Virus record (IMG/VR): IMGVR_UViG_3300049460_000121
Coordinates: 203,468 to 267,467 of that record
Strand: one strand, 5' to 3'
Length of the DNA stretch: 64,000 nt
Source of the DNA: a virus
Lineage: Duplodnaviria > Heunggongvirae > Uroviricota > Caudoviricetes
Part shown: one piece after another, positions 7,165 to 25,441 of the stretch
Layout: the number at the start of each line of letters is the position of its first letter
Position numbering within the stretch: the first letter of the stretch is position 1
Notes under the pieces: generated by a model
Told to the model about the DNA's origin: nothing
Database searches by the model: none
What the model saw: only the letters and a program-made list of their open reading frames with translations
Program-made: the position numbers and the translations under genes

Positions 7165-7196
7165 CAAGACCACAATGTACGACTCAAAGAAAGTTG
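7165..7196 (-). promoter_or_regulatory. promoter-like motif copy (minus reading TTTGAGTCGTACATTGTGGTCTTGACG)
   Basis: Variant of the conserved motif. Lies in the divergent region between the minus gene at 7090 and the plus array starting at 7232. Confidence 0.4.
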
Positions 7197-7208
7197 AATC
7201 GAAAACAT

Positions 7209-7235
7209 CCTATGACTCAGGTTAACTCCACATGG
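7209..7235. promoter_or_regulatory. GAGTTAAC-containing motif (CCTATGACTCAGGTTAACTCCACATGG) in the divergent region before the paralogue array
   Basis: Shares the GAGTTAAC core with the motifs at 3248 and 27349. Confidence 0.3.
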
Positions 7236-7756
7236 ACACACATATGGACGATAAACAGCAATTAATCGACATGATTGTGTCGAAGAACCTGGAGGTAATC
7301 GAAGCCAACAATGTCGTGCTAGATGCGAGTTCCCTGGTACTCACTCTCCCAAGTGCAGGCGACTATAATGGGGCCAACACAGTTGTAATGGCCTCAGCAG
7401 TGCACGAAAAGGTCGAAGGTGACCAGGTCTTCTATTACAACCGGTTAACGGAAGTGTTATTCCGGGAAGCGTTAGGCAATCCAACGATATTGATTCCCGT
7501 GGATTGTCAGACGCCGCAACAGTTAAAGACTTACTTCGCCACTGAGTTCGGCGTGTTTCTAGATCTTGAGCACGTTAAGTCAGCACAAAGGCAACAATCC
7601 CAGTGGGTATTGAAGTTCTGGGAGTGGTCCTATACGTGGTTGGGGACATTCTCCCTTGACGCTGAGGTAGATCCAGATAACCCAATCCTGACGGACCTGA
7701 AAGACGTTCTCACCAAAACCCGTCTGGATGGCCTCTACTATCCTGATAACGGGTGA
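7232..7756 (+). CDS. paralogue family A member (174 aa, N-domain type)
   Basis: Family-A N-terminal motif: L..LI...N, then a T-rich strand, then Y.NRL. First gene of the plus-strand array; no clear SD. Confidence 0.5.
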   Translation: MDTHMDDKQQLIDMIVSKNLEVIEANNVVLDASSLVLTLPSAGDYNGANTVVMASAVHEKVEGDQVFYYNRLTEVLFREALGNPTILIPVDCQTPQQLKTYFATEFGVFLDLEHVKSAQRQQSQWVLKFWEWSYTWLGTFSLDAEVDPDNPILTDLKDVLTKTRLDGLYYPDNG

Positions 7757-8247
7757 GTGCCGTGGATACAACGTACGATTACACCAAGCCTGAACTCGCT
7801 CTTATGTTTGACGTCCTCAGACATTCGAATGATAAGTTCCCGATAGATCCAACCGAGCTTTCGTGGAGCGAACCAACCGCAGTATACCCTCCGACCCACA
7901 AAGGACGTGATACGTCCATTGAGGCGACGATTGTGAACAGCGATCGTTACAGAGGGAAAGGGACCTACTACTACCTGCGTGTACCGCTGAGGCAGTTGAC
8001 CCCACGATGCGGCATGATTCCACGAATCGTGATCGGGAAGCGTCCGAGTCTCTATGAGAATTTGACGTACATCAACGCCGCCCTATCTCTCAACCTTGAG
8101 CAGGTATCGGTGGACGACATCGACCTTAATTCGTTGTCGGTGAACGCATCGGACTGGACCCTGGTTCGGATCTTTGCAAAGGCTACTTCGCGGGTCTATT
8201 CGGACTCTGTACGACTCTACCTTAAACGGGACAATAGCCTCGTTTAA
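7753..8247 (+). CDS. paralogue family A member (164 aa)
   Basis: GTG start overlapping the upstream stop (GTGA). Weak family-A pattern. Confidence 0.45.
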   Translation: MSAVDTTYDYTKPELALMFDVLRHSNDKFPIDPTELSWSEPTAVYPPTHKGRDTSIEATIVNSDRYRGKGTYYYLRVPLRQLTPRCGMIPRIVIGKRPSLYENLTYINAALSLNLEQVSVDDIDLNSLSVNASDWTLVRIFAKATSRVYSDSVRLYLKRDNSLV

Positions 8248-8291
8248 GCTCGATCCTATGTAGAACACCCGCCCTACTGAAGGAACCCGCG

Positions 8292-8819
8292 ATGGCGAAG
8301 CACATCAGCGACTTTAGCAAGTTGCCGTTGGAGATCGTTTTCGATCTTATCAATGAGCAAAACGGTTCGGCGCTCAACAACACAGAGGTGGTGTTGGGTC
8401 AACCGACCGTAGCCACCGGCAGCGGTGGTTATAACACTGACATTTTAGTCACTGCCCGGCCGAATGGTCGTTATGAAGGTTCTGTTAGCCTCGGCTATAA
8501 CCGTCTGGATGTGGTAGGTTTCCTGTTTGGCGATACCATCACCCTTACCCTGGGTGATGCAACGAACGTTTCGGACCTGATCCCTGAGATCAATACGAAG
8601 CTCAGAGCCAACCTCACTACGGATGACTTCGTAGACGCGCCTATCGGGACGTGGACGGGAACACCAGGCGAGACTAAGCAGCTCACCATCCAGATGAAGC
8701 CTACCAGCTTAGTCTTTATCGGCGAGTTGGCGCTGACAGTGCATGTCGACGATATCCCGTTGGGTGATGTCATTGTCATCAGCGCCCTGCCGGGTCTGAT
8801 TTACCAACCACCTGCCTGA
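8292..8819 (+). CDS. paralogue family A member (175 aa)
   Basis: GAAGGAAC SD. The N-domain LPLEIVFDLINEQN...NTDILVTA...GYNRLDV is clearly shared with its neighbours. Confidence 0.6.
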   Translation: MAKHISDFSKLPLEIVFDLINEQNGSALNNTEVVLGQPTVATGSGGYNTDILVTARPNGRYEGSVSLGYNRLDVVGFLFGDTITLTLGDATNVSDLIPEINTKLRANLTTDDFVDAPIGTWTGTPGETKQLTIQMKPTSLVFIGELALTVHVDDIPLGDVIVISALPGLIYQPPA

Positions 8820-8887
8820 ACAGCGGGATTCTATGAGTTCCCCCAAAGGTAACGCTCAGCAACCCTTTTATAGAAGAGAGACGCCCA

Positions 8888-9436
8888 ATGGCTGACAATC
8901 TTACACTGCCTCCCAAAGAGGTAATTTGTGCGCTGATCAACCGTACTAACACTGCGGTAGGTGCTGCACTGACTCCAGCTCTGGTAACGTTCGGTCTGCC
9001 GAGCCAATCCAGCGGTGGTACTTTCAACACCGACCTCACCGTGACCGCGATTGACGGTTCAGGCTATGTCGGGATTGTACCGATCAACTACAACCGTGTG
9101 CACCTGCAAACGGAAATTGCTGATCCGTACGCCGCCAGTGGCGTTGGTCGTAACCTCGACTTCAACATCGGCAGCGCGATCAAGATCGCTGACATGGTTC
9201 CGCAGATCAACGCACGGTTCGGTATCAACCTGACCTCTGCCGACTTCATCGACGGCGACCTGCCTACCTTCGTTGGTGGGGCGAACGAGACTCATCCCGT
9301 CCAGGTCATCGCCAACGCCGACTCCCTCTGCTACCGCGGCAGCTTCACCTTCACCCTGATGGCTGAAGACATCGAGCTGAGCACCGTGATTGTCGAGACG
9401 GTCATGAACGGCCTGACCTACGCTCCACCGGTCTAA
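8888..9436 (+). CDS. paralogue family A member (182 aa)
   Basis: N-domain PPKEVICALINRTN...NTDLTVTA...GYVG...NYNRVHL. Confidence 0.6.
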   Translation: MADNLTLPPKEVICALINRTNTAVGAALTPALVTFGLPSQSSGGTFNTDLTVTAIDGSGYVGIVPINYNRVHLQTEIADPYAASGVGRNLDFNIGSAIKIADMVPQINARFGINLTSADFIDGDLPTFVGGANETHPVQVIANADSLCYRGSFTFTLMAEDIELSTVIVETVMNGLTYAPPV

Positions 9437-9453
9437 TCATTCAGTACTGCACA

Positions 9454-9484
9454 GATGAGGGGTGGGTTCGCCCCACCCCTCATC
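9454..9484 (+). other. intergenic stem-loop within the plus-strand array (GATGAGGGGTGGG-ttcg-CCCACCCCTCATC)
   Basis: Perfect 13-bp stem with no U-tract. Possibly an RNA processing or stability element. Confidence 0.4.
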
Positions 9485-9511
9485 TAGTCTGTCCGGCCCA
9501 GGAGACTCCCT

Positions 9512-10300
9512 ATGTTCCTTTTACCAGACGGGTCGAAGCAGTCACTGATCGACGCCGTGAACGATGTCAATACGTTCCCAGTTGCATTCACCGCAGCCGA
9601 CCTTTATTTCGGCAAAGTCAAGATCGAAAGCAACGGCCACGTCAGTGTGCCTGCTGTCACTATGTACAACAGCGAGTTCGAGGGTTACATCCGCCTGAAC
9701 TATCAGCGGCTTGACCTCGGCAAAGTGTACGGGACCATCAAGCCCAAGATTCGCCGGGTAGGTTATCCTACGTTGTACCGTCTACTGCCAATCATCAACG
9801 AAACTCTCGGTCTCAGTTTGACTGAAGAGGACGTGGTGGACATTTCCATCACATGGCTGAACGATAACGAGCAGATCAACATCCCGGTTATCGCCAAAGC
9901 GAACTCCCTCGGTTTCGAAGGACAGTTCATGCTGGAGTACACTCGAGTTCGTCCTGAGTTGGCAACACTGGCCATCAAGACCCTCAACGTACTGAAGCAT
10001 CCTATCGAGCCAGCGCTGGGTAAGAAATCCCTAGCGATGATGACGTGGGGTATCGACTTCACCGATGACATGGGTGACTTTGCGCTCAACGCAGGTAGCT
10101 GGCGGTTCCAAGATCGGGTTGAGGCTCGTATGGCGGAGTTGGGATTCCCTAACTGGCCACGGCCACCGTACTGGACGCTGACGGCCGTCCCCACATCGCA
10201 AGTCCCATTGGCCAACCAAGAGTTTGAGTATGTGATCGTCCAAAAGGACATCGTTCTCGCAGACCACATTGGCGATGGCTACATCCACTTCAATCGTTAG
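9512..10300 (+). CDS. paralogue family A member (262 aa; C-terminal YIHFNR)
   Basis: AGGAG SD. N-domain plus the C-terminal HYN-type motif. Confidence 0.6.
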   Translation: MFLLPDGSKQSLIDAVNDVNTFPVAFTAADLYFGKVKIESNGHVSVPAVTMYNSEFEGYIRLNYQRLDLGKVYGTIKPKIRRVGYPTLYRLLPIINETLGLSLTEEDVVDISITWLNDNEQINIPVIAKANSLGFEGQFMLEYTRVRPELATLAIKTLNVLKHPIEPALGKKSLAMMTWGIDFTDDMGDFALNAGSWRFQDRVEARMAELGFPNWPRPPYWTLTAVPTSQVPLANQEFEYVIVQKDIVLADHIGDGYIHFNR

Positions 10301-10315
10301 TGAGAGGCTCCATCC

Positions 10316-11143
10316 ATGGCCTTGTATCCAGATCCGCTCGATTCCATCTTGGCGTCGATCAAATCGCTTAATAGCGGGACAGAGCTTGGGCGGGACGAAT
10401 ACATCTTCGACGCGCCTGTAGCCATCCCTCCAGAAGCCGGTGGTATCAACACCAGCCTGAGGATCTCGCAGAACGGCCCTACAAGCCCGTATGCGGGCGA
10501 AGTGACTGTAAAGCATATCCGACTCAACCTCGATGACTTGCGCATCCTGGTGCCTTCCGACATCCGCGTCAGTGGCGTCACCACCACGCTCGAGTTTGCC
10601 ACCCAGTTGAACCGTATCTACGGGACCAACATCGGCGCGTCTGACATCGAGACCACTGGGATGGCTCTGACGGATGGTGTCGGCACCATCACCCTGACGG
10701 CTAAGCCAGCGTCACGGGCATGGATTGGCACTGTAACCTTCAACGTTACTCCCGGCCGTTTCCAGTTGGCCGATTACCTGACCGATACTACCCTCGACGG
10801 TCTGCAATATCCAGACCCGTATGAAGGTAAAGCGTTCGGTAACGCTTATGCTTACTGGCGCAACTTCTCCGATCAATTCACCGCCCTCGAAACGATCACT
10901 GTCGAGTCTCCGGACTGGACTGCCATCAAAGATGTACTGGTTGCGGTCACTACCGACGCCTGGGTACTCACTGGCAGCTCACGGTTCTCGCTGGAAGGCG
11001 CTGAGGTGCTGTATGTAGGCGCGGTAGCCGGTTACCCTGAGCTGAACCAGACTTACGACAAAGCGGTGGTCCTGAAGCTCGGTGCAGCCTGCCTGGGTTA
11101 CTCGGGTCGGATGTTCCTGCACTATAACGAACCGGACGAGTGA
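10316..11143 (+). CDS. paralogue family A member (275 aa; C-terminal FLHYNEPDE)
   Basis: Family motifs at both termini. Confidence 0.6.
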   Translation: MALYPDPLDSILASIKSLNSGTELGRDEYIFDAPVAIPPEAGGINTSLRISQNGPTSPYAGEVTVKHIRLNLDDLRILVPSDIRVSGVTTTLEFATQLNRIYGTNIGASDIETTGMALTDGVGTITLTAKPASRAWIGTVTFNVTPGRFQLADYLTDTTLDGLQYPDPYEGKAFGNAYAYWRNFSDQFTALETITVESPDWTAIKDVLVAVTTDAWVLTGSSRFSLEGAEVLYVGAVAGYPELNQTYDKAVVLKLGAACLGYSGRMFLHYNEPDE

Positions 11144-11151
11144 GGTGACCG

Positions 11152-11934
11152 ATGAACAGCGCAGATAAGATTCGTCAGCTGCTCAACGATTCGAACCTAC
11201 CGCCGAAAGAGTTCACCTCCGTCAACTTGCGGATGGATCTACCGATCCTTGAGCTTGGCGAAGGCTACAACACCAAGCTAGGCCTTGAAGGTATCCCAGG
11301 TCGTGGCTATTACGGCCCGGCTGAAGTCTTCTATCGCCGTATCGACCTCAGTACGATCAATCGCCAGACGCCGGTGCGGACGACCATCCCTCTGACGGCT
11401 CAGGTGGTGTTGGACCTCTTCAATGCGGTCACAGCGCTGTTCCTGACGCTGGAAGACGTTGAACCTTTTACCCCACCGGTGTTGAATGATGGGGATAGTG
11501 GTGAAGTCACCATTGTCGCGGTAGAGAACTCGTTGGGCTTTACTGGTTCGGCTGTCATTCCGTTGGAGTTTGGACGGTCGTGGTTGGATTCGGTGGTGGG
11601 GAGTCGTATCCTCCCTGTCCTCAAGCATCCGATCGTGAAACTCGACTATCGGCAATCGGCTCGCATGCTGACGTGGTCCAAGGACTTCACCTGCTTGCGC
11701 GACAGCCTCTTGCCGAACACGATCAGTCAGTACTCTGATTGGTCAACGTTAAATGCCGCATGTTTGGAGATGGGAATCCCGCCTTGGGTTCAGGCTGGCA
11801 TTAGCGATAACGCCACCAGCGATATTCTGGATAGTAACCCACTGTTTGATCGGGTGGTCATCCAACGTAACGTGCTGAGCGCCTCGATGCTGGGTGATCT
11901 TTATTTCCATTACAATATCCTCGAAGAGGTTTAA
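11152..11934 (+). CDS. paralogue family A member (260 aa; C-terminal YFHYNILEEV)
   Basis: GAGGTGA SD; the N-domain includes LPPKEF as in 8888. Confidence 0.6.
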   Translation: MNSADKIRQLLNDSNLPPKEFTSVNLRMDLPILELGEGYNTKLGLEGIPGRGYYGPAEVFYRRIDLSTINRQTPVRTTIPLTAQVVLDLFNAVTALFLTLEDVEPFTPPVLNDGDSGEVTIVAVENSLGFTGSAVIPLEFGRSWLDSVVGSRILPVLKHPIVKLDYRQSARMLTWSKDFTCLRDSLLPNTISQYSDWSTLNAACLEMGIPPWVQAGISDNATSDILDSNPLFDRVVIQRNVLSASMLGDLYFHYNILEEV

Positions 11935-11936
11935 CC

Positions 11937-12878
11937 ATGCCACTTTACAACAAGCCGTCCAAGGCGTTGGTCTATGACCTCATCAACGAGGCTAACCCAA
12001 CGCTGCCGATTCCGCTTACGGTTGCGAACACCAAGCTGAGTGATCCAGCACCGGCAACGGTTCCTGGTAACGCGGCAATGAATACGGTGATCACGGTCAG
12101 TGCAGCCTCAGCCGATTACATCGGTCGTAAGCCACTGAACTACCGTCGTCTGTCGTTCAACAACCTGTTCCGCGGTATCACGGTACAGATCAACAAGTAC
12201 TCGGCGAACCAGACCGCATCCAACTCCGTGGTATTCACCCTGTACAACCTGTTGCCAATCATCAACACGATCTACGGCCTCAATCTGAGCGAAGACGACG
12301 TCACCAACGTCAACATTCTTCGAGGCACCGTCCAGGAGAATGGGTTCTACACCTCCACGGTGACAGTGACTGCCAAGGCTACCAGTCTCGGTTACATCGG
12401 CTCGTTCTCACTCAAATGGCGCAGTGCTCCACAAGAGCTCGAGTCCATGATTACCGTAACCGACCTGGCTGCTCGTTCGTTCCCAGGCGGCAACACCTTC
12501 GATGGCGGTCACCCAGTTGTCGTCGACAACATGGCGTACGGTATCGACTGGACCGCGTTCATCGCCACCGCGCCGTGGGGTAACTTCCCAGGTAACCTGA
12601 TCGCGGGTGGTGAGACCCCAGCGTTCGGTAACCGGTTCATCGCTGAACTCAACCGGCTGTATGGCAAGAACCTGGTGGGTTCGTACAACAACGCTCCAGC
12701 ATACGCCTACTTGGATTGGGGCACTGCGGTGTACGACCTCTCCACTCAAGCCGGCCGCGATGCCGCTCCGTTGGCCAACTCTACGTACTACAACCGCGTG
12801 CTTATCTGGACCATTCCAACGTATGACACCGCGCGTGGTGCTGGTATCGGCCAACACTACATCCACTTCAACGTCTGA
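11937..12878 (+). CDS. paralogue family A member (313 aa; C-terminal YIHFNV)
   Basis: Family motifs present. Confidence 0.6.
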   Translation: MPLYNKPSKALVYDLINEANPTLPIPLTVANTKLSDPAPATVPGNAAMNTVITVSAASADYIGRKPLNYRRLSFNNLFRGITVQINKYSANQTASNSVVFTLYNLLPIINTIYGLNLSEDDVTNVNILRGTVQENGFYTSTVTVTAKATSLGYIGSFSLKWRSAPQELESMITVTDLAARSFPGGNTFDGGHPVVVDNMAYGIDWTAFIATAPWGNFPGNLIAGGETPAFGNRFIAELNRLYGKNLVGSYNNAPAYAYLDWGTAVYDLSTQAGRDAAPLANSTYYNRVLIWTIPTYDTARGAGIGQHYIHFNV

Positions 12879-12889
12879 GGATAGATCTA

Positions 12890-13762
12890 ATGTCTTACAT
12901 GACTCCGTCACTCACCGACTTCTTGAAGGCGCTCAACACCGCCAACTCGACGGCGTACACGGTCAACGACATCACCTTCGGCGTGCCTCAAGCGCTCTCC
13001 GGGACCTGGCAAGGTCAGGTGACCACCCGCAACACCGGCGTTCGCGTCACTGCCAAAGCCGGTGGTCCGTATCAGGGCAAGCGTGACCTCACCTACGATC
13101 GCCTGAACTTGGCGTCGTTGACGGCTACTAACCTCGCCGGCTTCCAATGCTCGGCGTACAACATCACCACAGTACACACCCTGTTGCCGATGCTGAAGTA
13201 TTGGACAGGCATTCAGTTCACCACCGATGACCTGGAGAACAATCCCCTGGTCGACAACGGTGACAACACCAGCACCACCACCTTGACTGCAAAGGCTGGC
13301 AGTTTGGGCTGGATTGGTAGTGCGACTCTGATCGTCACCCGTGGTGCGGCTCCGATCGATCAGTTGGTTACGGTTACCTCGTTGAACGGTCTGAACTACC
13401 CGACTGCCAACGATCAGGACACCTTCGGTGCCCTGTACCTGTACCCGTACGATTACACCAGCTACTTCAGCACGATGTCGGCAATTGCTCCAGGTGTCAT
13501 CGCCGGTACTCAAGCAGACGCTCTCGTAGCCATGCTGCTGGCGACCGACCTTGGCGCAGGCAAAGCGTTGTGGGTAAACAACCCTGGCGTGACGGCATGG
13601 AACCTGGCTGGCGCAACAGTGGTTAGCAACGGCCTGAACACCCCAGCCCTACCAACCAACTCCACGTACAAGTACGTGATGGGTCTGCAACTGGATCCGG
13701 CTGTGTTGACTCCTGCTGGTCTGATGTACCTCCACTACAACGATCCGTTCGACGCGGCGTAA
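12890..13762 (+). CDS. paralogue family A member (290 aa; C-terminal STYKY...YLHYNDPFDAA)
   Basis: GAGGA SD; full two-domain architecture. Confidence 0.6.
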   Translation: MSYMTPSLTDFLKALNTANSTAYTVNDITFGVPQALSGTWQGQVTTRNTGVRVTAKAGGPYQGKRDLTYDRLNLASLTATNLAGFQCSAYNITTVHTLLPMLKYWTGIQFTTDDLENNPLVDNGDNTSTTTLTAKAGSLGWIGSATLIVTRGAAPIDQLVTVTSLNGLNYPTANDQDTFGALYLYPYDYTSYFSTMSAIAPGVIAGTQADALVAMLLATDLGAGKALWVNNPGVTAWNLAGATVVSNGLNTPALPTNSTYKYVMGLQLDPAVLTPAGLMYLHYNDPFDAA

Positions 13763-13764
13763 GT

Positions 13765-13796
13765 GGGCATAGACGAGTACCAAGCGGTACTCGTCT
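13765..13796 (+). other. plus-oriented GCATAGA-plus-hairpin module (AGACGAGTAC-caagcg-GTACTCGTCT) without U-tract
   Basis: Carries the same GCATAGA-hairpin signature as the minus-strand terminators, but on the plus strand inside the array. Confidence 0.4.
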
Positions 13797-13819
13797 ACTT
13801 ATCCATTGGGAGACTAATC

Positions 13820-14842
13820 ATGCTTCGTGCAATTATTGGATTCGATCACATCGGCAAGAACTTGGCCGAAGCCGCATGGCTACCGAACTGCGGGTATGCC
13901 ATCACTCACAGTGCCGGTAATAAACAATTCCTCATCTCGTCAGACGCTAGCCTCAGTGTGGCGGCTGGTGTTTCGTCCGGGTACGCTCAGTCGGTCTTTG
14001 ACCTCAGTCCATTTTTGGTTCCCGGCATCTCCACCCTGTCAGTCGGCATTCGGTTCAAGACCCTCGTTGCTGGTAATTCTGGCCAGATGTTTTTTATCGG
14101 GACGACCGTAGCCGTCTCCGACCCCCAGTTCATCGCCAACTACGCCGATATGCCAGCCGCCGCTCAACTAGCCGGCGGTGAAACGTATCTGGAGGTGGTT
14201 TACAACCTGACGGCTGGGACGTACAGTGTTTACTGGGACGATGTCCTAAAGGGTACGTATACAACCGCCACCATCAACCAAACCAGTCTAAAAGCTGGTA
14301 AGTTGGTACTAATCATGGAACACACCGGCCCTAGCCAGAGCGGTGTGACGGCTTATCGCGACATCGTGATCGTTGACGATCTCCCAGGCGATGGCTACGT
14401 CACTCGCCTGGGTCCTCGGGTCATTTATCCAGTGACGTTGGATTCGGCATCCGGAACAGACTGGACCAGCAGTGATGGGTCTGGGTTCCTGACAGCCCTT
14501 AATGTACCGATTGAGACTGCTGGTGCTGCAACCCTGACATCGGGTCCAAGTAAAGTGCCATTGGTCACCAGCCTCAAGGCAGCTACCTTGCCGACACAAA
14601 ACACGATCGTCGACGGTGTCTTCATCATGGCTGCCGGTAAGACCGACATCTCGTCAGCGTTGGTGGGTAGTACATTGACCAACGGCGCTAAGTCCATCAA
14701 GGGACAGTCGAAGACATTCACCACAACGCTGAAATACGGTAACCCATTAGGGATGTTTGCTCGAGCTCCAGATGGTAGTCGTTGGACTGCCGCTTCCATC
14801 GACGCGACATCACTCAGTCTGACTCCTGACGTAGCGAGTTAA
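13820..14842 (+). CDS. paralogue family B member (340 aa; N-terminus MLRAIIGFDHIG, C-terminus W.AASIDATSLSLTPD)
   Basis: Start placed at the Met that has a GGGAGA SD, which matches the N-termini of the other family-B genes. Confidence 0.6.
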   Translation: MLRAIIGFDHIGKNLAEAAWLPNCGYAITHSAGNKQFLISSDASLSVAAGVSSGYAQSVFDLSPFLVPGISTLSVGIRFKTLVAGNSGQMFFIGTTVAVSDPQFIANYADMPAAAQLAGGETYLEVVYNLTAGTYSVYWDDVLKGTYTTATINQTSLKAGKLVLIMEHTGPSQSGVTAYRDIVIVDDLPGDGYVTRLGPRVIYPVTLDSASGTDWTSSDGSGFLTALNVPIETAGAATLTSGPSKVPLVTSLKAATLPTQNTIVDGVFIMAAGKTDISSALVGSTLTNGAKSIKGQSKTFTTTLKYGNPLGMFARAPDGSRWTAASIDATSLSLTPDVAS

Positions 14843-14845
14843 ACC

Positions 14846-15859: not shown

Positions 15860-15867
15860 GGTCCGTC

Positions 15868-16362: not shown

Positions 16363-16377
16363 GCCGAGGGTATCACC

Positions 16378-16767
16378 ATGCAAGATTGGCCGAATTACCT
16401 GATCCGTCAGGACTTCACCGAACTGGGTATCATGCTGCGCGATATCCCATTGGGTCCGCTGAATGAAGCCGACCAACGACTGGTAGCTCAGATCTTGTCC
16501 GAATCCGGTCCTACGACCGACGCGGGTAAGTGGAACATGGACGAGCACGCCACGGAGTACAGCCTGAACGGTGCTGAGGTCGTGTACAACGAACTCAACC
16601 ACCGTGACCTCCCTACCTTCAGCACTTACAAGTACGCCCTCGGGTTGCGCTTCCCAGAACGTTCTACCGGCCCTGTTGGTACACTCTACTTCTGCTGGCA
16701 TGATCCAGTAGTAGAGGCGCCTGCCGAAGAACCTCCTGTCGAAACCGAACCTGTGGCTGAGGAGTAA
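16378..16767 (+). CDS. family A C-domain-only ORF (129 aa; STYKYALGL...YFCWHDP) - 3' half of a split member
   Basis: Aligns with the C-terminal domain of 12890..13762 (STYKYVMGL...YLHYNDP). Has a Pro/Glu-rich tail. Confidence 0.5.
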   Translation: MQDWPNYLIRQDFTELGIMLRDIPLGPLNEADQRLVAQILSESGPTTDAGKWNMDEHATEYSLNGAEVVYNELNHRDLPTFSTYKYALGLRFPERSTGPVGTLYFCWHDPVVEAPAEEPPVETEPVAEE

Positions 16768-16771
16768 CGAC

Positions 16772-17806: not shown

Positions 17807-17823
17807 TACGAGGTTGTATAATC

Positions 17824-18792: not shown

Positions 18793-18803
18793 GGGAGTAG
18801 TCC

Positions 18804-19478
18804 ATGACTGTTAATATTGCCAACGTTCAGGGCTATGCTCTGACACGCCCTGCGATGGGGGCGAAAGTCTCCAACGTTCAGGGTTATGTGTTGATGATCC
18901 CGCCAGCCCCTGTACGACTGCGTGAGGTACGCGGCTACGTGATGGGTGCTCCCCCACTATCGATCAATTTAAGATCGGTTGCTGGTTACGCGATGGCGAC
19001 GTATATCCCGTTACCAAAAGGACAGACCTTTGCGACTGCCCTGATGACTATGATCCTGGCGAGAGCGAAATCGGTCCGTCCAGCCACGCACTTCAACCTC
19101 GGCGCTGTTGAGGTTGGTGATGTAGTCGGGTACAACTCCAAAGTCAAGTTGACGCCAACGGCATTGGCTCAGTTGTCCGGGGAGATGTATTTCCACTACA
19201 ACCGAGTTTACATGAACCGGATGCCTGACCTCAGTTCTGTTGTTGTCGGTTCTGAAGCCACTACACAGGCATTGATCTCTAAGATCAATACCGTGACCGG
19301 CATGCAGTTGACGGCGGCTGATATCGTAGACGAACCGATCGATTCAGAGGCGACCGTGGTCAGCATTAAAGCAGCCACCACCAGTTACCTGTTCGTCCCC
19401 GGCACTTCCGTGTCAGTAGGGTCGATCTTACCGCCACTCTCGTTGGCATTTACTGATCCAATCATTCGTTGGAGCTGA
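18804..19478 (+). CDS. paralogue family A member with GYAL repeats (224 aa; YFHYN near the C-terminus)
   Basis: N-terminus carries four GYAL-type repeats (NVQGYALTRP, NVQGYVLMIP, VRGYVMGAP, VAGYAMATY). Confidence 0.55.
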   Translation: MTVNIANVQGYALTRPAMGAKVSNVQGYVLMIPPAPVRLREVRGYVMGAPPLSINLRSVAGYAMATYIPLPKGQTFATALMTMILARAKSVRPATHFNLGAVEVGDVVGYNSKVKLTPTALAQLSGEMYFHYNRVYMNRMPDLSSVVVGSEATTQALISKINTVTGMQLTAADIVDEPIDSEATVVSIKAATTSYLFVPGTSVSVGSILPPLSLAFTDPIIRWS

Positions 19479-19488
19479 GGTATTAAAC

Positions 19489-20592
19489 ATGGCTATTCGT
19501 AGTTTCTTTGGTTACGACGATGTGGTAATGCCTATTGGTGAGCAGATCCCAGCCGGCTTTACTACGCTCCCACCGTTACCATTTAGCTTTAAGGCCGGCG
19601 CGGCAGCCCTTCGTGGCGCGACCTACACGAAAGACTCTGGCTGGCTGAAATGTACGGCAAGTACTGGTTACAGCGGCAGTACCCAAAAAGTCAACTATCT
19701 CCAGGCATCGCTTGCCGGTCTTGGCCTCACTGCGTCGGCTACGGCCGTCGTTACGGTTGGGTTGCGTTGGATAGCACCAGCTGCTAACGCAGGGGGTTCG
19801 CAAGCGGCGAACTGGGTCCACCCGATGGCGTTTATGGGTTCGACCACGGTCGATGGGACTACCTTGCCCGCTGCCTCAGTGTTCCCCATCGGTAGTATCC
19901 CAGGCTTTGTGTATGGTCAAGAGTATTACCTCGAGGCCCAATGGGATATCGCCGCTAACATCGTGCGCCGCCGGGTCGATGGTAAAGCCATTGCCGACAT
20001 TGCGTTGGCGGCTGGTGTTGCCTCACTCTTTGCGGCGGGGACTACCTTGTTTGTCAGCGGTACTACAGCGGTATCCATCTCAGCCAACACTATCGATGTG
20101 ACGTTCTGGCTGAAGGACATGTACGTCATCGAGAAGACCAATGATGGTACGGCAGACTCCTTCTTGGGTCCGCAGCGGGTATTCCCGATCACCACCGCTA
20201 GCCTTGACCAAGCTACCTGGGCTGCCACCGGCGCAGCTGATTCTGTAACAGCGTTGAACATGGCTGTTACGGATTCTGCTAGTTTGACAACCCCGGTGGT
20301 GACGACGGATGTGGCCAACCCCACCGCCAATGTCGGTCTATCTATACCTACCTTCGCCGGACCGGTGAACGGTGTAGTCCTCTTCGCCACCGCCCGTAGA
20401 AAGGATGGTGCATCTGGTACCCTCGCTGCCCAAGTAACCTCGGGTACTGACAATTCATCTCAGACGAATAACGTCTTGAGTAGCACTATTGTCCCAGGAT
20501 ACAAGCTGTACCTTGCCGAGAAGTCTCCTTCGGGCGTTCGTTGGACCCGTGCAGCAATTCAGGCCGCGAAACTTAAACTCACTGCCTCGTAG
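19489..20592 (+). CDS. paralogue family B member (367 aa)
   Basis: N-terminus SFFGYDDV; LGPQRVFPIT hinge; C-terminus WTRAAIQAAKLKLTAS. Confidence 0.6.
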   Translation: MAIRSFFGYDDVVMPIGEQIPAGFTTLPPLPFSFKAGAAALRGATYTKDSGWLKCTASTGYSGSTQKVNYLQASLAGLGLTASATAVVTVGLRWIAPAANAGGSQAANWVHPMAFMGSTTVDGTTLPAASVFPIGSIPGFVYGQEYYLEAQWDIAANIVRRRVDGKAIADIALAAGVASLFAAGTTLFVSGTTAVSISANTIDVTFWLKDMYVIEKTNDGTADSFLGPQRVFPITTASLDQATWAATGAADSVTALNMAVTDSASLTTPVVTTDVANPTANVGLSIPTFAGPVNGVVLFATARRKDGASGTLAAQVTSGTDNSSQTNNVLSSTIVPGYKLYLAEKSPSGVRWTRAAIQAAKLKLTAS

Positions 20593-20603
20593 TCGGAGTC
20601 ACC

Positions 20604-21680
20604 ATGGTTACAACAAACTTCTTTGGCTTGGAGCACTTACCTATTGAGTTCGCGGCTGGAGCCGCACTCACTGGGTGGGGGTTGGCTTATTCAGAGTTAG
20701 CCCCTACAATCTACAGTGGTGGTGATCTCCATTACGCTGTCCCTAGAATCAAAAACAACAAGATCGTTTTCGGTCCAGACATCAGTGGAGGGTCGTATGG
20801 TGTCGGCGCGACTTACATACTGCTCAGCAAACTCATTGGGAACGTCACGCCTCGTAAAGTAATCATTGGCTTTCGTCATGAAACTATCGGTGCTGTCTCT
20901 GGAGCACCTCCGGTGTTCGGCACAAGTCCTGCGAACAACACGACTACTAGCGCCGGGTTTTTACCACTGAAGACAACGGCGGCTACACCACTGCCCGATG
21001 GTTATTACGAGATCATCTTTGACTTCGTAGCTTCCACGTACACCGTTATGTTCAATGGCGGTGTGTATACGGCAGCTACGTCGTTGGGCAGCTCCGGTCT
21101 GACTGCGGCTAACTTCAAGACCAACTTCTGGACAATCGGACATCCGTACACCGTGTGGTTCACGCCAGCGGTTGACGTATTCGCAATATCGGATATCTAT
21201 TCGATGGTGTCTATCGATCCTGCCGACGATGCGCTGATCAAACCACTCGGTCCGATCACCCTTAAACGACTACCTGTGTTGTCGACCACTGGGGCCGGCT
21301 ACACGCCTCCTGGCGGCTCTAACATAGTCGACGCCTTGAACACTCGCCGCGCAGCTACAGCGAGCCTCTCAGCGCCTAAGGTGGGCGTTGCAGCAGACAA
21401 CACCCCGTTACGGGTAAAGGTTGATGCGTCGTCGTTATCGTTTGTTACTGTGAGGGGTATCAGTGTCAAGGTAGCTGCGGTAAAAGACGTGGCCGGCGAT
21501 AAAACCCTCTCCGTGGCGCTGGCTTCCAATGGCACTACTAACGCATCGGTACCCGTAACAATGACTGCTGCGGCGGCGCCTCTCGATGCTTCACCGGGCG
21601 GGCTGCTTACCATGCCCGATGGTTCGGGCCTTACGATAGCTTCCTTGAGTAATTTGGAAGTGGTCCTTACCCCCGCTTAA
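20604..21680 (+). CDS. paralogue family B member (358 aa)
   Basis: N-terminus NFFGLEHLP; C-terminus LTIASLSNLEVVLTPA. Confidence 0.6.
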   Translation: MVTTNFFGLEHLPIEFAAGAALTGWGLAYSELAPTIYSGGDLHYAVPRIKNNKIVFGPDISGGSYGVGATYILLSKLIGNVTPRKVIIGFRHETIGAVSGAPPVFGTSPANNTTTSAGFLPLKTTAATPLPDGYYEIIFDFVASTYTVMFNGGVYTAATSLGSSGLTAANFKTNFWTIGHPYTVWFTPAVDVFAISDIYSMVSIDPADDALIKPLGPITLKRLPVLSTTGAGYTPPGGSNIVDALNTRRAATASLSAPKVGVAADNTPLRVKVDASSLSFVTVRGISVKVAAVKDVAGDKTLSVALASNGTTNASVPVTMTAAAAPLDASPGGLLTMPDGSGLTIASLSNLEVVLTPA

Positions 21681-21697
21681 AGAATTGAGGCGCATGT

Positions 21698-22420
21698 ATG
21701 TCCACAAGTTTAAGGAGTGTCGACGTTTACGTAGCGGTCAGTCAGATACCGACGGTTGAGTTGCGTAAGGTCAACGGTTACGCTCTAGCTACTACAGTAG
21801 AGCCCATCACACTGCGGGGCATCAACGGTTACGCTCTGGTAGATCAGGTTAAACGACCCGACCTGAACATCTCAGGTAAAGTTGGGATACTGGCCGCGAT
21901 CAACAAAGAGCAAGGCACCTCGTTTATTGCTAGCCAATTGACGTTCGATATCCCCCAACCCACCGCCGATCAAACACAGGCGTACAACACGACCATCAGG
22001 GTAACAGCGAAAAAGAGTTCAGGGTATTCCGGCTACTACACGTTCCAGTACGCCAGATACGCTCTCTCTGAAGCGTTCGATGGTCAGGCGTTGGATCTGC
22101 CGGGCGTTGTAGGTACAACTATCTGGGGAACGTTGGATGCTATCAATACCAAGTTTTTCATCAAGCTTGAGCAGTACGACGTAGCCGACGGACCTATTAC
22201 TCCAGGCGCTACTTCTATCCTACTCACGGTTCTGGATAGTAGCATTTACTACAAGTCTGGAACGACGATCCGGTTAGGCAGTACTGATATCGATATTCCA
22301 TTCGCAACGATCGCTCCTGTGACCAATGCGTTGGGCTTCGATCCAGTTGGGATTGTCGATGTTCCATTTGCGAGCATCGCACCCGTAACAGATGTACTGG
22401 GTTTCGATCCAGAAGCATAA
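21698..22420 (+). CDS. paralogue family A member with GYAL repeats and a tandem C-terminal repeat (IPFATIAPVTNALGFDP / VPFASIAPVTDVLGFDPEA)
   Basis: N-terminus has VNGYALATT and INGYALVDQ. The family-A N-domain is LAAINKEQG...NTTIRVTA...GYYTFQYARY. Confidence 0.55.
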   Translation: MSTSLRSVDVYVAVSQIPTVELRKVNGYALATTVEPITLRGINGYALVDQVKRPDLNISGKVGILAAINKEQGTSFIASQLTFDIPQPTADQTQAYNTTIRVTAKKSSGYSGYYTFQYARYALSEAFDGQALDLPGVVGTTIWGTLDAINTKFFIKLEQYDVADGPITPGATSILLTVLDSSIYYKSGTTIRLGSTDIDIPFATIAPVTNALGFDPVGIVDVPFASIAPVTDVLGFDPEA

Positions 22421-22425
22421 GCGAC

Positions 22426-22470
22426 ACAAGGCCGCCTACTCCTTACGGGGTAGGTGGCTTTATGCTGTTC
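22426..22470. terminator. convergent terminator hairpin (GCCGCCTAC...GTAGGTGGC) followed by TTTATGCTG
   Basis: Sits between the plus gene end at 22420 and the minus gene end at 22475. Carries the TATGCTG signature of the stereotyped terminators. Confidence 0.5.
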
Positions 22471-22474
22471 GGTA

Positions 22475-23422
22475 TTAGAGGACCAACACGATCGGGTAAG
22501 TCGTGTCGAGATACAGCTGCGATGTCGAGGCGCCTTTGATATCGCAAGAACCAGGAACGCCGGACGTAGGACGAACAACGTTGGACATTTGAATCGCTGC
22601 GTTCAACAGGCCGTACGCTACGGAGATCTTGGCCTTAACTTGAGCATCGGTATCGGCCTCCAGAATAGTTACTTCGGAAGGCGGTACAGCGACCTGAGAC
22701 ATGATGTCAAGTCTGTGGTAATGGATGTCCACCGTACCAGAGAAACCCTGCCCACCAACCGCTGTCAGCGTGATAGAGGTATTGGCAGTCGATGGCGCTT
22801 CTGGAGTGAATGGGGTCAGACCAGCCAATGTAGCCGTAGTTCCCGAGAAACCCCACGGATAAACCGCGTTGATCATCGCGTACAGATTCTGACTGCCGGT
22901 CTTGGTAAGATCGACGCCCAGGTTAGCCAAACCGGCGAACTCAGGGTCTGGGATCGCCGTGGTCAACGGGATGACCGCACCGTCCAAGGTGATGTGGATA
23001 TCCAACGGATCGCCGTTATACAGCAGCGAATCGTCGATAGGCATCATGGTGGCTACAGTGTAGTCATCAGTCCCAGGAATAGTGACGGTACTGACTTCCA
23101 CCTCGGAAGCTTTCAATCCGAAGGTCGTGCAAACCTTGGCATGGATCTCTGGCTGAGTATCGGTACCCAGGATAGACACACGGTTCGGGTCTACGGCCTT
23201 AGCCCCCAACAGATCGTAGCGGCCGTAGAAGAAAGACCGCGATCCTTCGATACCTTCACCATCAATACCCGTCAAGGTAATCTTGGTGTTGTCACCTGGG
23301 TTCTCAGTACTCGCGATGATTGCATCGACGGTCACTTGAGTCTCAACGATGGACGAGCCATTCTTCGCATTGATCAGACCCAAGACGTTCGTCAGTGGAC
23401 TCAGACTTACATTTATTTGCAT
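22475..23422 (-). CDS. paralogue family A member on the minus strand (315 aa)
   Basis: Start set at MQINVSLSPLTNVLGLINAKN, which has a GGAG SD. The N-domain matches family A. Confidence 0.55.
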   Translation of the reverse strand: MQINVSLSPLTNVLGLINAKNGSSIVETQVTVDAIIASTENPGDNTKITLTGIDGEGIEGSRSFFYGRYDLLGAKAVDPNRVSILGTDTQPEIHAKVCTTFGLKASEVEVSTVTIPGTDDYTVATMMPIDDSLLYNGDPLDIHITLDGAVIPLTTAIPDPEFAGLANLGVDLTKTGSQNLYAMINAVYPWGFSGTTATLAGLTPFTPEAPSTANTSITLTAVGGQGFSGTVDIHYHRLDIMSQVAVPPSEVTILEADTDAQVKAKISVAYGLLNAAIQMSNVVRPTSGVPGSCDIKGASTSQLYLDTTYPIVLVL

Positions 23423-23451
23423 ATCGTCTACTCCATTAAATGGCGGTGACA

Positions 23452-23484
23452 ACATAAAGCCCGGCTTGCGCCGGGCCGTATGCT
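23452..23484 (-). terminator. CATAAAG-hairpin (CCCGGC-ttgc-GCCGGG)-CCGTATGCT terminator variant
   Basis: Between the two inverted family-A genes. Confidence 0.45.
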
Positions 23485-23491
23485 AAATCAC

Positions 23492-24016
23492 TTACGCTTC
23501 AGCTTCGAAAGCATCCAGGTCAGTGATAGGTGCTACGGTAGCGAACGCTACGTCTTCATCTGCGAAGCGCAGTTCAACGTCACGAACACCAACGTACAGC
23601 AGGCCTGGATCGATCGCAGAGATCTGGATGGTACCAGGGGTGCCGACGGCGACTGGAGCTGTGTACGACACGTCGCCGATCTCGGAGGCTTTCAGGCCCA
23701 GAGCGGTGCAGACCTTGACGCGCGACTGATCGCGAGTATCGGCCTCGAGTACGGTGACGAACGTAGGGGCGTTGGTTGCCACAGCGCCAGTGGCCAGAGA
23801 TTGACGGGTGTAGGCGAAGGTACGAGAACCTTCGATACCCTGACCATCAACGCCGGTCAGTTGTACAGTGGTGTTACGACCACCGGTACCGGCGGCGACT
23901 ACTGGCGCAGCAGCAGTAACTTGGGCTTCGGTGATGTTGGTGCTCGACGCAGTGTTAGCCGCGTTGATTGCCGCCAGGATGTTGGCCAGCGGCGAGAGTG
24001 CGATGTTAACTTTCAT
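23492..24016 (-). CDS. paralogue family A member on the minus strand (174 aa; C-terminus AFATVAPITDLDAFEAEA)
   Basis: Start at MKVNIALSPLANILAAINAAN with a GAGGA SD. The C-terminal motif mirrors the C-terminus of 21698..22420. Confidence 0.55.
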   Translation of the reverse strand: MKVNIALSPLANILAAINAANTASSTNITEAQVTAAAPVVAAGTGGRNTTVQLTGVDGQGIEGSRTFAYTRQSLATGAVATNAPTFVTVLEADTRDQSRVKVCTALGLKASEIGDVSYTAPVAVGTPGTIQISAIDPGLLYVGVRDVELRFADEDVAFATVAPITDLDAFEAEA

Positions 24017-24064
24017 GTCGTATATCCTCGGCGAGTGAAGAGGTCCCGATCCTAGGTTCTTCAT

Positions 24065-24805
24065 ACTATTACGACATAAAGGTCCAGCCGGCGGTCATTA
24101 TTACCGTTTGCAGCATAAAGGGGATAAAAATGATCACCAACGACGAGGAGTGGGGAGGGACGTCGTTGGTGACCGAGCGCAGTGCTGAGAGACTCCGGGA
24201 CCTGAAGGGGAAGTCCGACCCGGAGCCAATGATCAAAGGTCGATGGGATAACCTTTGTTCAAATGATAATGCGGTTCTGTAAATATTTACACTAACCGAA
24301 AGTTCGCAGCATAAACACGCCGAGTATGACCGACCCTCTCCGGGACGGCCAGGGACTCGGCGTGTTTAATGATCCAAGGCCTGCTTCAAAACCATTGCAT
24401 GCCTCGCTGGAGTACCAGGTCTGGGTGCGCTAGAGTTGAAAGCGTGTGTGGCAGAGGATTGATCGCGTAACCCGCCGGTGCCGACTATAACAGTGCCTGG
24501 CAAGAGGCCTACAGGGAGTCAGAGTTCAAGTTGTGTGGATGCGTACATCCTGATTGTACATATAATGTCAATCCCCAGAAGCTATCCGTGTCCTCACGCT
24601 AGATAGGTTCTGAGGCTTAGCACTAAAGGCTACAGCTACACCAGCCACCCGCATGGGCTGGTGTCAGTGCTAGGGAGGACATCCCAGCGTTGGTACCCCG
24701 GTCGACGGAGCGAGTGCCGACCATTGGGGTAGAAACTGCACTGTTATTACATAGTATACATAAATGCAAACGATATGAAGGAAACACCTAAATAGGGGGC
24801 TCTTA
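24065..24805. other. 740-bp non-coding, highly structured divergent region
   Basis: Contains several stem-loops: CAACGACG...CGTCGTTG; AAACACGCCGAGT...ACTCGGCGTGTTT enclosing an inner hairpin; TAGCACT...CACCAGCC-acccgcatg-GGCTGGTG...AGTGCTA. Also contains CATAAAG motifs. I found no tRNA-like T-loop. Confidence 0.5.
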
Positions 24806-25420
24806 ATGCAGCACTACGTCACTGACATCAGAATCCTACAACTGATCAACGCGAAGGCACTGAACCGTATAGATGAGGACGAAGTTGAAATCTCTTTGCC
24901 GCTCGCCATCCCTCCAAGGATCGAAGTGAATGGCCTGGAGACAAACACTCAGATCACCATCACTGCCCGCCCAGAGGGGAAGTACAAGAACTCCAAGACA
25001 GTACGCTATCGCCGCAACACCATCCAGGCCGAGTTCGATGGTTACCCTGACATCGAATCTCCTACGGCGACAAACCCGGTGTGGGAAGGCATCATCTATA
25101 GTGAGATGATTGGATTGGTGACTGATGTACTGCAACTGTTCTGTATCGACCCAAATGATATAGACATGGAGTCATTTGGCCACATGTTTCCAGCGGACAG
25201 TCGGGGTAGGCGTGAGTTAGACCCTACCTTCTTGAACGAAGATGGTTTACTCACGGTTGTTTTACAGCCTACTCAAAACAACTACTATTACAACGGACCA
25301 GCCACCATTACCTTTGGTGGACATAATGCTACCGATCCTACGTTGCGATTGGAAGAGAATCTGGCTGTCCGTTATTTGGAAAGTGGCGATACTCGCCTAC
25401 AGGATGGGGTTAACGCGTAA
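24806..25420 (+). CDS. paralogue family A member (204 aa)
   Basis: AGGGGG SD; N-domain ILQLINAKALN...NTQITITARPEGKY...RYRRNTI. Confidence 0.55.
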   Translation: MQHYVTDIRILQLINAKALNRIDEDEVEISLPLAIPPRIEVNGLETNTQITITARPEGKYKNSKTVRYRRNTIQAEFDGYPDIESPTATNPVWEGIIYSEMIGLVTDVLQLFCIDPNDIDMESFGHMFPADSRGRRELDPTFLNEDGLLTVVLQPTQNNYYYNGPATITFGGHNATDPTLRLEENLAVRYLESGDTRLQDGVNA

Positions 25421-25441
25421 GTAGAAAAGAAGGGGAGCAAC

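Follow-up and report, generated by a model that had tools for sequence, protein, structure and literature searches.

Why would a phage devote 18 kb of its genome to genes for just two kinds of protein? This question is raised by a metagenomic virus sequence of the class Caudoviricetes (IMG/VR record IMGVR_UViG_3300049460_000121), of which we analysed one 64,000-nucleotide stretch (positions 203,468 to 267,467 of the record; hereafter the window). Between positions 7232 and 25420 of the window every gene belongs to one of two families, A and B, giving an array of 22 contiguous genes. Family A is Pfam DUF7941, a known family of phiKZ-like phages, and family B has a predicted lectin-type fold; in the reading that we favour, the two would together form glycan-capturing filaments on the virion.

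Two protein families in one array

Translated open reading frames (ORFs) from positions 1–31 kb of the window were compared by all-versus-all BLASTP and grouped at E < 1e-3, and those of the array fell into exactly two connected components. Family A joins 17 ORFs, 16 with an N-terminal domain (N-domain) and one, 16378, consisting of the C-terminal domain (C-domain) only; named here by their first coordinate, with a trailing hyphen for minus-strand genes, they are 7232, 7753, 8292, 8888, 9512, 10316, 11152, 11937, 12890, 14846, 15820/15868, 16378, 18804, 21698, 22475-, 23492- and 24806. Family B comprises the five ORFs 13763, 16772, 17824, 19489 and 20604. Two probable true starts lie further in, at 15868 rather than 15820 and, for the frame that opens at 13763, at the ATG at 13820 (reading MLRAIIGFDH). 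Paralogues are mostly 20–35% identical, with a top pair, 22475- and 23492-, at 46%. No DNA-level repeat in the array is longer than 61 nucleotides, and those found are motif-coding stretches at only 70–83% identity, which indicates that the paralogues are ancient rather than products of recent duplication or amplification, and rules out recent tandem duplication, gene conversion and a diversity-generating retroelement. A six-frame scan of the whole window with hidden Markov models (HMMs) found no A or B member outside the array. An earlier note on this DNA had counted about 24 paralogues in two interleaved families, with at least 17 members in A and 5 in B: both families stand with this membership, each as its own BLASTP component of significantly similar members, and the total comes down to 22.

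The identity of family A follows from curated profiles. All 16 N-domain ORFs score above the gathering cut-off of PF25613 (DUF7941), which is 27 bits, with 39.8–187.9 bits and E values of 4.8e-10 to 3.4e-55; 16378 has no Pfam match and instead matches the C-domain part of PHROG_1037 and of 12890. The family also matches PHROG_1037, PHROG_2935 and PHROG_3589, each labelled 'virion structural protein', in agreement with the earlier reading of family A as virion proteins. Against the Protein Data Bank (PDB), a profile of the 17 window sequences has a single match, gp127 of phage phiKZ (E = 3.5e-9), reaching the shared C-terminal ...G.L.IHYN. We modelled 12890, the family A member best conserved across relatives, with AlphaFold2 on an alignment of 45 orthologues and paralogues (mean predicted local distance difference test score (pLDDT) 88.4, predicted template modelling score (pTM) 0.53). 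The N-domain (residues 1–155) and C-domain (180–290) are at about 90 or more, and the linker between them (160–180) is of low confidence (pLDDT 57–65). A Foldseek search of the PDB with this model returned phiKZ gp127 (9xqd_0) as the sole significant match (E = 1.1e-4, probability 1.00, target template modelling (TM) score 0.61; runner-up E = 0.24), showing a predicted N-domain fold shared with phiKZ gp127 (PDB 9XQD). Likeness to gp127 thus lies in both the profile match, including the C-terminal IHYN, and the N-domain fold, although identity in the structural alignment is only about 14%, the deposited structure models the N-domain of gp127 only, and at least three members are reported from phiKZ against 16 in the window.

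Family A proteins occur in several forms. Alignment A3 contains all the motifs quoted in the earlier note, namely L..LIN..N, NT...VTA, Y.G....Y.RL and the C-terminal NS.Y...G..Y.HYN. Six members are full length (9512, 10316, 11152, 11937, 12890 and 14846; alignment A3), nine have one N-domain and no C-domain, one (22475-) has a doubled N-domain and one (16378) is the C-domain-only gene. Some version of a linker motif, L.GL.YP, is present in seven of the nine short members (7232, 8292, 8888, 15868, 21698, 23492- and 24806) and lacking in 7753 and 18804. Among orthologues the linker is conserved at least as well as the flanking domains: that of 12890 is 83–86% identical to its counterparts in two metagenomic relatives, L006 and L007, against 73–75% for the N-domain. 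A linker that is conserved yet predicted to be flexible would be typical of a segment that takes up its fold on a partner, and contradicts the 'highly variable middle' of the earlier description, which had also put the N-domain at about 80 amino acids where the model gives about 150. With N-domain, linker and C-domain all conserved, family A fits head-to-tail subunits and not an anchor with a variable tip; the idea of a conserved anchor plus a variable distal part applies to fusion proteins of the relatives and fails for the majority of family A in the window.

Family B proteins are linked to known proteins mainly through their predicted structure. At E ≤ 0.01 no Pfam family matches 13763, 17824, 19489 or 20604, curated lectin and LamG models have no sequence match in family B, and a sequence search of the PDB gave no match at E ≤ 1. 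The one Pfam match of 16772, to a 38-residue SBBP beta-propeller repeat (E = 1e-4, 22.6 bits against a 20.5-bit cut-off), we regard as spurious, since the confident model of this protein is a two-domain beta-sandwich and not a propeller (AlphaFold2, 28 sequences; pLDDT 92.3, pTM 0.90). Its N-terminal domain is predicted to have the jelly-roll beta-sandwich fold of concanavalin-A-like lectins, and the whole two-domain fold recurs in uncharacterized or 'virion structural' proteins of many smaller phages (TM 0.55–0.77, Foldseek E values of 1e-16 to 1e-9). By sequence, family B weakly matches PHROG_2448, a family of unknown function (about 1e-8 to 1e-10). Two-domain virion proteins of smaller phages (Serratia JS26, Achromobacter AchV4, Providencia Kokobel1 and Vibrio VpV262) share the whole-length B fold; the AchV4 protein is labelled 'virion structural protein', and proteins of this type often occur as several paralogues per phage, as in family B. 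Sequence identity is only 10–18%, however, and DUF7941 is not reported in those phages. An exhaustive HMM search for family B collected 657 cluster representatives at E ≤ 1e-3, and a profile search of a word-indexed database added just four proteins. In four of the five B members the lectin domain is more divergent than the second domain. Judging from the modelled fold, family B proteins may bind host glycans.

Relatives, a split gene and the link between the families

The protein encoded by 12890 is also encoded on a 267,330-bp Logan contig (SRR26075508_1575), which makes the window a quarter of a jumbo-phage genome. Upstream of the array lies a DnaB-like helicase gene (PHROG_3213, 2.5e-107) for which tblastn retrieved 290 records of phiKZ-like jumbo phages, with hosts including Pseudomonas, Erwinia, Salmonella, Vibrio and Ralstonia. 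Chimallin and the split RNA polymerases are not encoded in the 64-kb window, and no search was aimed at them. By these homologies the array probably belongs to an uncultured phiKZ-like (chimallivirus-type) jumbo phage. Megablast of positions 7000–26000 against 50,697 phage records gave no match, so there is no close sequenced cultured relative; by protein FLC9, a Burkholderia phage of 321 kb that grows on Burkholderia glumae, comes nearest among cultured phages (49% identity for 12890), and SPN3US-like and Erwinia jumbo phages are at about 34%. Contigs bearing orthologues number roughly 120. We compared the locus with FLC9 and with five metagenomic contigs, L004, L006, L007, L008 and L009 (243–290 kb where complete). 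In NCBI a 12890 orthologue carries the label 'Ig-like domain-containing protein [Streptomyces sp. CHB9.2]' and lies on a contig of 241,743 bp, and a family B orthologue occurs in the eukaryotic transcriptome set EukProt 'Spiro4'; these two records (P0105 and P0018) look like jumbo-phage sequence mislabelled as cellular.

Such an array is a hallmark of the phiKZ-like group. The earlier judgement that so many paralogues in a row are highly unusual for a phage therefore holds for phages in general and overstates the rarity within this group, where SPN3US has a 17-member array and FLC9 and the five metagenomic jumbo phages have theirs. In FLC9 the syntenic array gp307–gp326 (LC667451), annotated throughout as 'hypothetical protein', has 14 family A and 6 family B matches, the same split of one member into an N-domain and a C-domain gene (gp318/gp317) and a repeat-bearing DUF7941 protein (gp310); it differs in having large fusions (1084 and 1162 amino acids) or DUF7941 joined to a LamG-like domain. 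The SPN3US family, gp138–gp154, was described in 2016 and detected in virions by mass spectrometry (PMC5105663). Like the window, SPN3US has a tandem array of virion paralogues, comparable in size (about 17 kb), and 10 of its 16 complete genes match the family A HMM (1e-17 to 1e-44); its second domain family, here 'family C' (300–332-amino-acid type), is homologous to window gene 26562–27275. DUF7941 is interleaved with family C in SPN3US and with family B in the window, and SPN3US has DUF7941 N-domains fused to family C (470–498 amino acids) whereas the window has one stand-alone family C gene; a further difference, the assignment of the SPN3US family to the head or neck, is weighed below. 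Identity of family B with the second SPN3US family was considered and rejected, as the family B HMM has no match in that array and the hhalign probability is 0.1%.

One family A member is encoded in two parts. The ORF 15868–16362 ends in ...KLTGF followed by an in-frame TAA, with the split falling at the linker, and 16378 starts 15 bases on, after GAGG, in the same frame and with its own ATG. Each of the five metagenomic relatives, and FLC9 too, keeps a separate pair of 164 and about 124 amino acids. With 510 nucleotides from start to start, the halves share a frame in the window, L004, L006 and L007; they are out of frame in L008 (509 nucleotides) and L009 (515 nucleotides). Programmed readthrough or a sequencing error at the TAA was rejected on the grounds that the frames differ in L008 and L009, that each half has an ATG and that the FLC9 genes are separate. 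Because it is conserved in relatives, two of which have the halves out of frame, comparison identifies 15868/16378 as an ancient and maintained true split.

A short repeat connects the two families. Members 14846, 18804 and 21698 carry two, four and three copies of an N-terminal repeat of exactly 17 residues with the motif (L/V)R.(V/I).GYA(L/M) (positions 14846–14950, 18804–19010 and 21698–21860), and every B protein opens with the related M(L/A)(R/V).(I/V).GF(D/E)H. Across six loci, the window and the five metagenomic relatives, the motif LR.v.(G/D)(Y/F) occurs in 16 of 16 family A genes directly 3′ of a B gene and in 0 of 79 other family A genes, a contrast that overstates the number of independent events because the regular expression was written after the repeats had been seen and the loci are orthologous. 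Where the upstream B gene is present (window, L004, L006 and L009) the 14846 orthologue has 337–338 amino acids and two repeats; where it is absent (L007 and L008) the orthologue has 298–302 amino acids and no repeats, which amounts to at least one independent event. Fusion proteins show the same pairing. In a set of ten long family B relatives, fusion to DUF7941 is seen in three and Laminin_G_3 in eight, P0250 having both. The single polypeptide P0166 runs B (13820-type)–LRNVQAYAI–DUF7941 (14846-type), and P0211 runs B (17824-type)–VANIQGYAV–DUF7941 (18804-type), so that these are fused counterparts of the adjacent pairs 13820+14846 and 17824+18804, joined via one repeat. FLC9 gp314 fuses B with family A segments, and gp310 has about eight analogous 17-residue repeats with the motif LR.v.A(L/F).(W/L), against LR.v.GYA(L/M) in the window; other relatives join B or DUF7941 to Laminin_G_3 or Kelch propeller domains. 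We infer that B proteins ride on the DUF7941 proteins encoded after them, probably attached through the 17-residue repeats.

The array varies in an orderly way between relatives. In the five metagenomic relatives the common order is one to four short genes, the five long genes 9512–12890, the split gene, a B-B-A unit with repeats and a variable 3′ end; family A ranges from 14 to 19 copies across loci and family B from 3 to 6, and a second B-B-A unit is present or absent as one block. In the window the two units span 16772–19478 and 19489–22420. L004 (15675–16991) and L008 (15116–16429) encode a 437–438-amino-acid protein of DUF7941 plus a Kelch beta-propeller, for which the window has a 54-bp gap at 22420–22475 instead. 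This variation in gene content between related phages bears out a prediction of the earlier note. Nucleotide identity to L004 is 95–99% at 6750–9500, 11000–13250 and 24500–25750, 65–80% throughout 13250–24250 and patchy in 9500–11000, and some genes of the divergent segment are nearer to L009 than to L004 (23492-, 84% against 57%). This patchwork suggests that the middle and 3′ part of the locus has been exchanged by recombination, as one would expect of genes that interact with the host. With its lectin-type B fold and its divergence hot-spot, this part makes the host-range role proposed earlier plausible, and the support extends to this part only. Beside the array of L008, at 18758–19531 on the minus strand, lies a gene with an Acb2/Tad1 hairpin domain (PF24729), of the anti-CBASS/anti-Thoeris sponge family.

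Individual genes and genomic setting

Table 1. Genes and intervals of the array and of the adjoining fibre block (aa, amino acids; + and -, strand).
Position	Strand	Feature	Support
7232–7756	+	Family A, short: N-domain and linker LDGLYYP, 174 aa	PF25613 1.8e-10; PHROG_1037 1.8e-12; alignment A3
7753–8247	+	Family A, N-domain only, without linker motif, 164 aa, GTG start	PF25613 4.8e-13; 164-aa gene also called in L004
8292–8819	+	Family A, N-domain and linker, 175 aa	PF25613 8.5e-29
8888–9436	+	Family A, N-domain and linker, 182 aa	PF25613 3.7e-27
9512–10300	+	Family A, full length, C-domain ending IHFN, 262 aa	PF25613 4.5e-33, profile positions 8–275 of 276
10316–11143	+	Family A, full length, 275 aa	PF25613 5.8e-49
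11152–11934	+	Family A, full length, 260 aa	PF25613 1.5e-26
11937–12878	+	Family A, full length, 313 aa	PF25613 9.5e-44
12890–13762	+	Family A, full length, 290 aa, modelled member	PF25613 3.4e-55; 49% identity to FLC9 protein
13820–14842	+	Family B, 340 aa	BLASTP 2.9e-33 to 16772; PHROG_2448 8.9e-8; 340-aa gene call on source contig
14846–15859	+	Family A, full length, two 17-residue N-terminal repeats (VRAVTGYAV, VRSINAYAL), 337 aa	Pfam 1.4e-28
15868–16362	+	Family A, N-domain half of split member, 164 aa	Pfam 4e-14
16378–16767	+	Family A, C-domain-only half, 129 aa	BLASTP 9e-12 to 12890 residues 183–286; PHROG_1037 positions 183–282, E = 2.9e-5
16772–17806	+	Family B, 344 aa, modelled member	
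17824–18792	+	Family B, 322 aa	BLASTP 6e-32 to 16772; PHROG_2448 1.2e-8
18804–19478	+	Family A, four 17-residue repeats and N-domain, without linker motif, 224 aa	Pfam 2e-12
19489–20592	+	Family B, 367 aa	BLASTP 8e-12 to 13763; PHROG_2448 5.3e-10; 59% aa identity to L004
20604–21680	+	Family B, 358 aa	BLASTP 1.2e-13 to 16772
21698–22420	+	Family A, three 17-residue repeats and N-domain, 240 aa	Pfam 1e-17
22475–23455	-	Family A, two tandem N-domains, 326 aa	Pfam 6.2e-22, two matched stretches; two HMM domains
23492–24064	-	Family A, N-domain and linker-like tail, 190 aa	Pfam 5.3e-12; 46% identity to 22475-
24065–24805		ORF-poor stretch, 740 bp, no ORF longer than 55 codons	Between divergent 23492- and 24806 (+); 79–95% nucleotide identity to L004
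24806–25420	+	Family A, divergent, 204 aa, profile match limited to first ~90 residues	Pfam 4.8e-10
25442–26548	+	Collagen-like fibre protein, 368 aa, adjoining the array	Pfam Collagen 5e-26; PHROG_3904 1.4e-52
26562–27275	+	'Family C' protein, 237 aa	PHROG_1062 1.2e-34; PHROG_3589 positions 160–382, 2.2e-25

Each repeat-bearing gene follows B genes directly, and every run of B genes leads into such a gene, 14846 lying 3′ of the single gene 13820 and 18804 and 21698 each 3′ of two. The repeats of 18804 begin at residues 5, 22, 39 and 56, and 21698 ends in two tandem linker-like repeats, PFATIAPVTNALGFDP / PFASIAPVTDVLGFDP. Orthologues of 22475- in L004, L008 and L009 are likewise on the minus strand with the same two-N-domain layout. 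Both 22475- and 23492- oppose the strand of the rest of the array, and a strong hairpin followed by a T-run lies between them (23458–23477, minus strand). The plus-strand ORFs 22454–23449 and 23480–24055 were rejected as genes, being Arg-rich, without a family match and shadows of these minus-strand DUF7941 genes. An alternative start of 23492- at the internal ATG 24016 would give 174 amino acids, as in the relatives. The ORF-poor stretch that follows may be a regulatory region. Gene 24806 is 99% identical to its L004 orthologue and absent from L006–L009. Predicted sigma-70 promoters and intrinsic terminators are no more numerous than in shuffled sequence and hence uninformative; phages of the phiKZ-like group rely on RNA polymerases of their own. 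Scanning the whole window for Rfam families and tRNAs gave no match.

Directly 3′ of the array stands the collagen-like tail fibre gene that the earlier note had placed there. Its Gly-X-Y repeats match Pfam Collagen in three stretches, and residues 262–368 match the C terminus of PHROG_3904 'tail fiber protein' (profile positions 986–1085 of 1086). The family C gene that stands alone after it matches the C-terminal part of a 470-amino-acid SPN3US array protein (BLASTP 7e-26) and eight other members of that array. Given these homologies, the functional block probably runs to about 27.3 kb. It is followed directly by a gene for an 847-amino-acid SNF2-type helicase (27386–29929, plus strand; PHROG_62) with an extra C-terminal domain matching PHROG_13483, of unknown function. 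The array holds virion-type proteins, as had been suggested, and does not sit in a classical virion module, since it lies between DnaB-like and SNF2-type helicase genes. Also upstream of the array, 3286–4470 (plus strand) has a sub-threshold match to the phiKZ-like internal head protein PF12699 (E = 1.6e-5, 24.7 bits against a 27-bit cut-off), a hint of phiKZ-like ancestry. The plus-strand ORFs of 4398–7265 are Arg/His-rich and look non-coding; minus-strand ORFs 4524–5267, 5280–5660, 6139–6699 and 6749–7123 are more plausible genes, of which 6139–6699 has a sub-threshold AP2-domain match, and in L004 a minus-strand gene is called just 5′ of the array. A candidate auxiliary metabolic gene at 55220–56518 (minus strand) matches glutathionylspermidine synthase (PHROG_6215, 1.9e-77).

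Models for the array and their implications

Functional clues to DUF7941 come from phage Goslar, which has ten paralogues. These proteins were found associated with virions by mass spectrometry, gp22 at about 580 and gp23 at about 2140 copies per virion; purified gp22 forms filaments, and AlphaFold predicts head-to-tail dimers in which the linker and C-domain of one subunit lie on the N-domain of the next. A gp126–gp127 model fits unexplained density in the phiKZ map, and a 'fibre cloud' emanating from the peripheral baseplate has been proposed (bioRxiv 10.64898/2026.04.21.720040). For Goslar the proposed anchor is gp32. In phiKZ, one gp127 caps the gp139 band in each of the six baseplate star lobes (PMC13250141). 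The window phage and Goslar share the DUF7941 family with several paralogues per genome, carbohydrate-binding domains in some relatives, a full-length form (gp22-like) and a short form of N-domain plus linker (gp23-like). They differ in that Goslar has 10 genes against 16 N-domain genes in one contiguous block of the window, that the lectin-type modules of the window are separate genes (family B) and not C-terminal fusions, and that the 17-residue N-terminal repeats on three window members are not described in the preprint; moreover, the Goslar proteins were studied experimentally, whereas the window phage is known from its genes alone.

By analogy, we consider it reasonably probable that DUF7941 proteins of the window assemble head to tail into heteropolymer filaments on the peripheral baseplate, bearing lectin-type B proteins and capturing host glycans. 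The linker of one family A subunit, with or without the C-domain, would dock on the N-domain of the next, as suggested by homology with Goslar gp22/gp23 and phiKZ gp126/gp127, and the 16 paralogues would co-assemble into mixed filaments, long and flexible, that start from the outer peripheral baseplate, the site of phiKZ gp127. Members without a linker would be confined to chain ends, and the two linker-like repeats of 21698 could engage two partners. Family B would be glycan-binding cargo carried by 14846, 18804 and 21698 via their repeats. The locus would thereby give the virion a larger capture radius and a hold on host surface polysaccharide, and B-B-A units and the 3′ end would be exchanged upon a change of host specificity. 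Polymerization of these proteins, docking of B on the repeats, sugar binding and the host-range role are all features that we infer.

A narrower proposal, which we put forward only tentatively, is that the locus encodes an adhesin assembled in trans, in which lectin-fold B proteins are loaded on DUF7941 filaments through LR.v.GYA(L/M) as a dedicated docking repeat. If so, B-B-A units would be self-contained, exchangeable modules of host specificity that can be gained, lost, split or fused, the repeats would add to the DUF7941 linker code a second code for head-to-tail assembly, and the 20–35% difference over 11 kb between phages that are 97% identical in the flanks would be explained.

Several points weigh against glycan-capturing DUF7941 filaments on the baseplate. 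All that is known of the phage is a metagenomic contig; the filament model comes from a non-peer-reviewed preprint and draws on negative stain of one protein and AlphaFold (bioRxiv 10.64898/2026.04.21.720040); the repeat numbers (2, 4 and 3) bear no simple relation to how many B genes lie upstream (1, 2 and 2), and the count of repeats at B genes is inflated as noted above. The SPN3US family, moreover, remained with DNA-filled tailless particles purified from a gp64 amber mutant, which led to its assignment to the head or neck and not to the tail (PMC5105663). On that evidence the window proteins might decorate the capsid or collar or form fibres there, or be carried with the head, and both the filing of these families under 'head and packaging' in PHROG and the lack of baseplate density for DUF7941 proteins in the Goslar maps (bioRxiv 10.64898/2026.04.21.720040) agree with such a location. 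We nevertheless think it unlikely: the sole relative with a solved structure, phiKZ gp127, has been placed in the outer peripheral baseplate (PMC13250141), self-assembling filaments could co-purify with heads, and the category in PHROG derives from the generic label 'virion structural protein'.

Two further explanations dispense with filaments. The earlier note had seen in the array a cassette of alternative receptor-binding proteins or adhesins acting in parallel, each with a shared anchor and a variable distal domain and without polymerization. An N-domain common to the members (alignment A3), Kelch, Laminin_G_3 or other domains distal to it in some relatives, and the variable gene content and divergence mosaic are what such a cassette would give; yet nine window members consist of the N-domain with or without a linker and have no distal domain, and the C-domain of the six long members is a conserved family domain ending in HYN rather than a variable tip. 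The five long genes 9512–12890 also keep the same order in all relatives, unlike cassettes, and hundreds to thousands of copies per Goslar virion exceed any plausible number of fixed anchoring sites, so that parallel adhesins seem to us improbable. Alternatively, the in-frame TAA that interrupts one member and the truncation of several to the N-domain could mark the array as mostly decaying duplicates, a relic of amplification with many non-functional copies and a pseudogene at the split. This we can scarcely credit. All 22 ORFs are intact and tightly packed, with positional orthologues at 40–98% identity among five other phages, most of them also in FLC9; the split is kept in all relatives with its two start codons and, in L008 and L009, different frames; DNA-level repeat similarity is lacking; and the N-domain-only form gp23 is the most abundant DUF7941 member in Goslar (bioRxiv 10.64898/2026.04.21.720040).

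Long arrays of virion paralogues have been known in this phage group since 2016, and the locus therefore extends existing knowledge rather than establishing a new principle. The variant features of the locus are lectin-fold partners encoded in trans, a repeat of 17 residues, a conserved gene split, a doubling of the N-domain and a divergent segment with sharp bounds. Little is understood of the way in which phiKZ-like jumbo phages find their hosts, and the idea of a DUF7941 'fibre cloud' is only months old. The locus and its relatives hold the largest complement in the present comparison, 16–18 N-domain genes against 10 reported for Goslar, and their short, long, split, doubled and repeat-bearing forms make a natural series for testing head-to-tail assembly, with fusions and co-variation pointing to the binding partners. 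The divergent segment, with its sharp bounds, marks candidate determinants of host range; the engineering of jumbo phages able to withstand many bacterial defences depends on such determinants.

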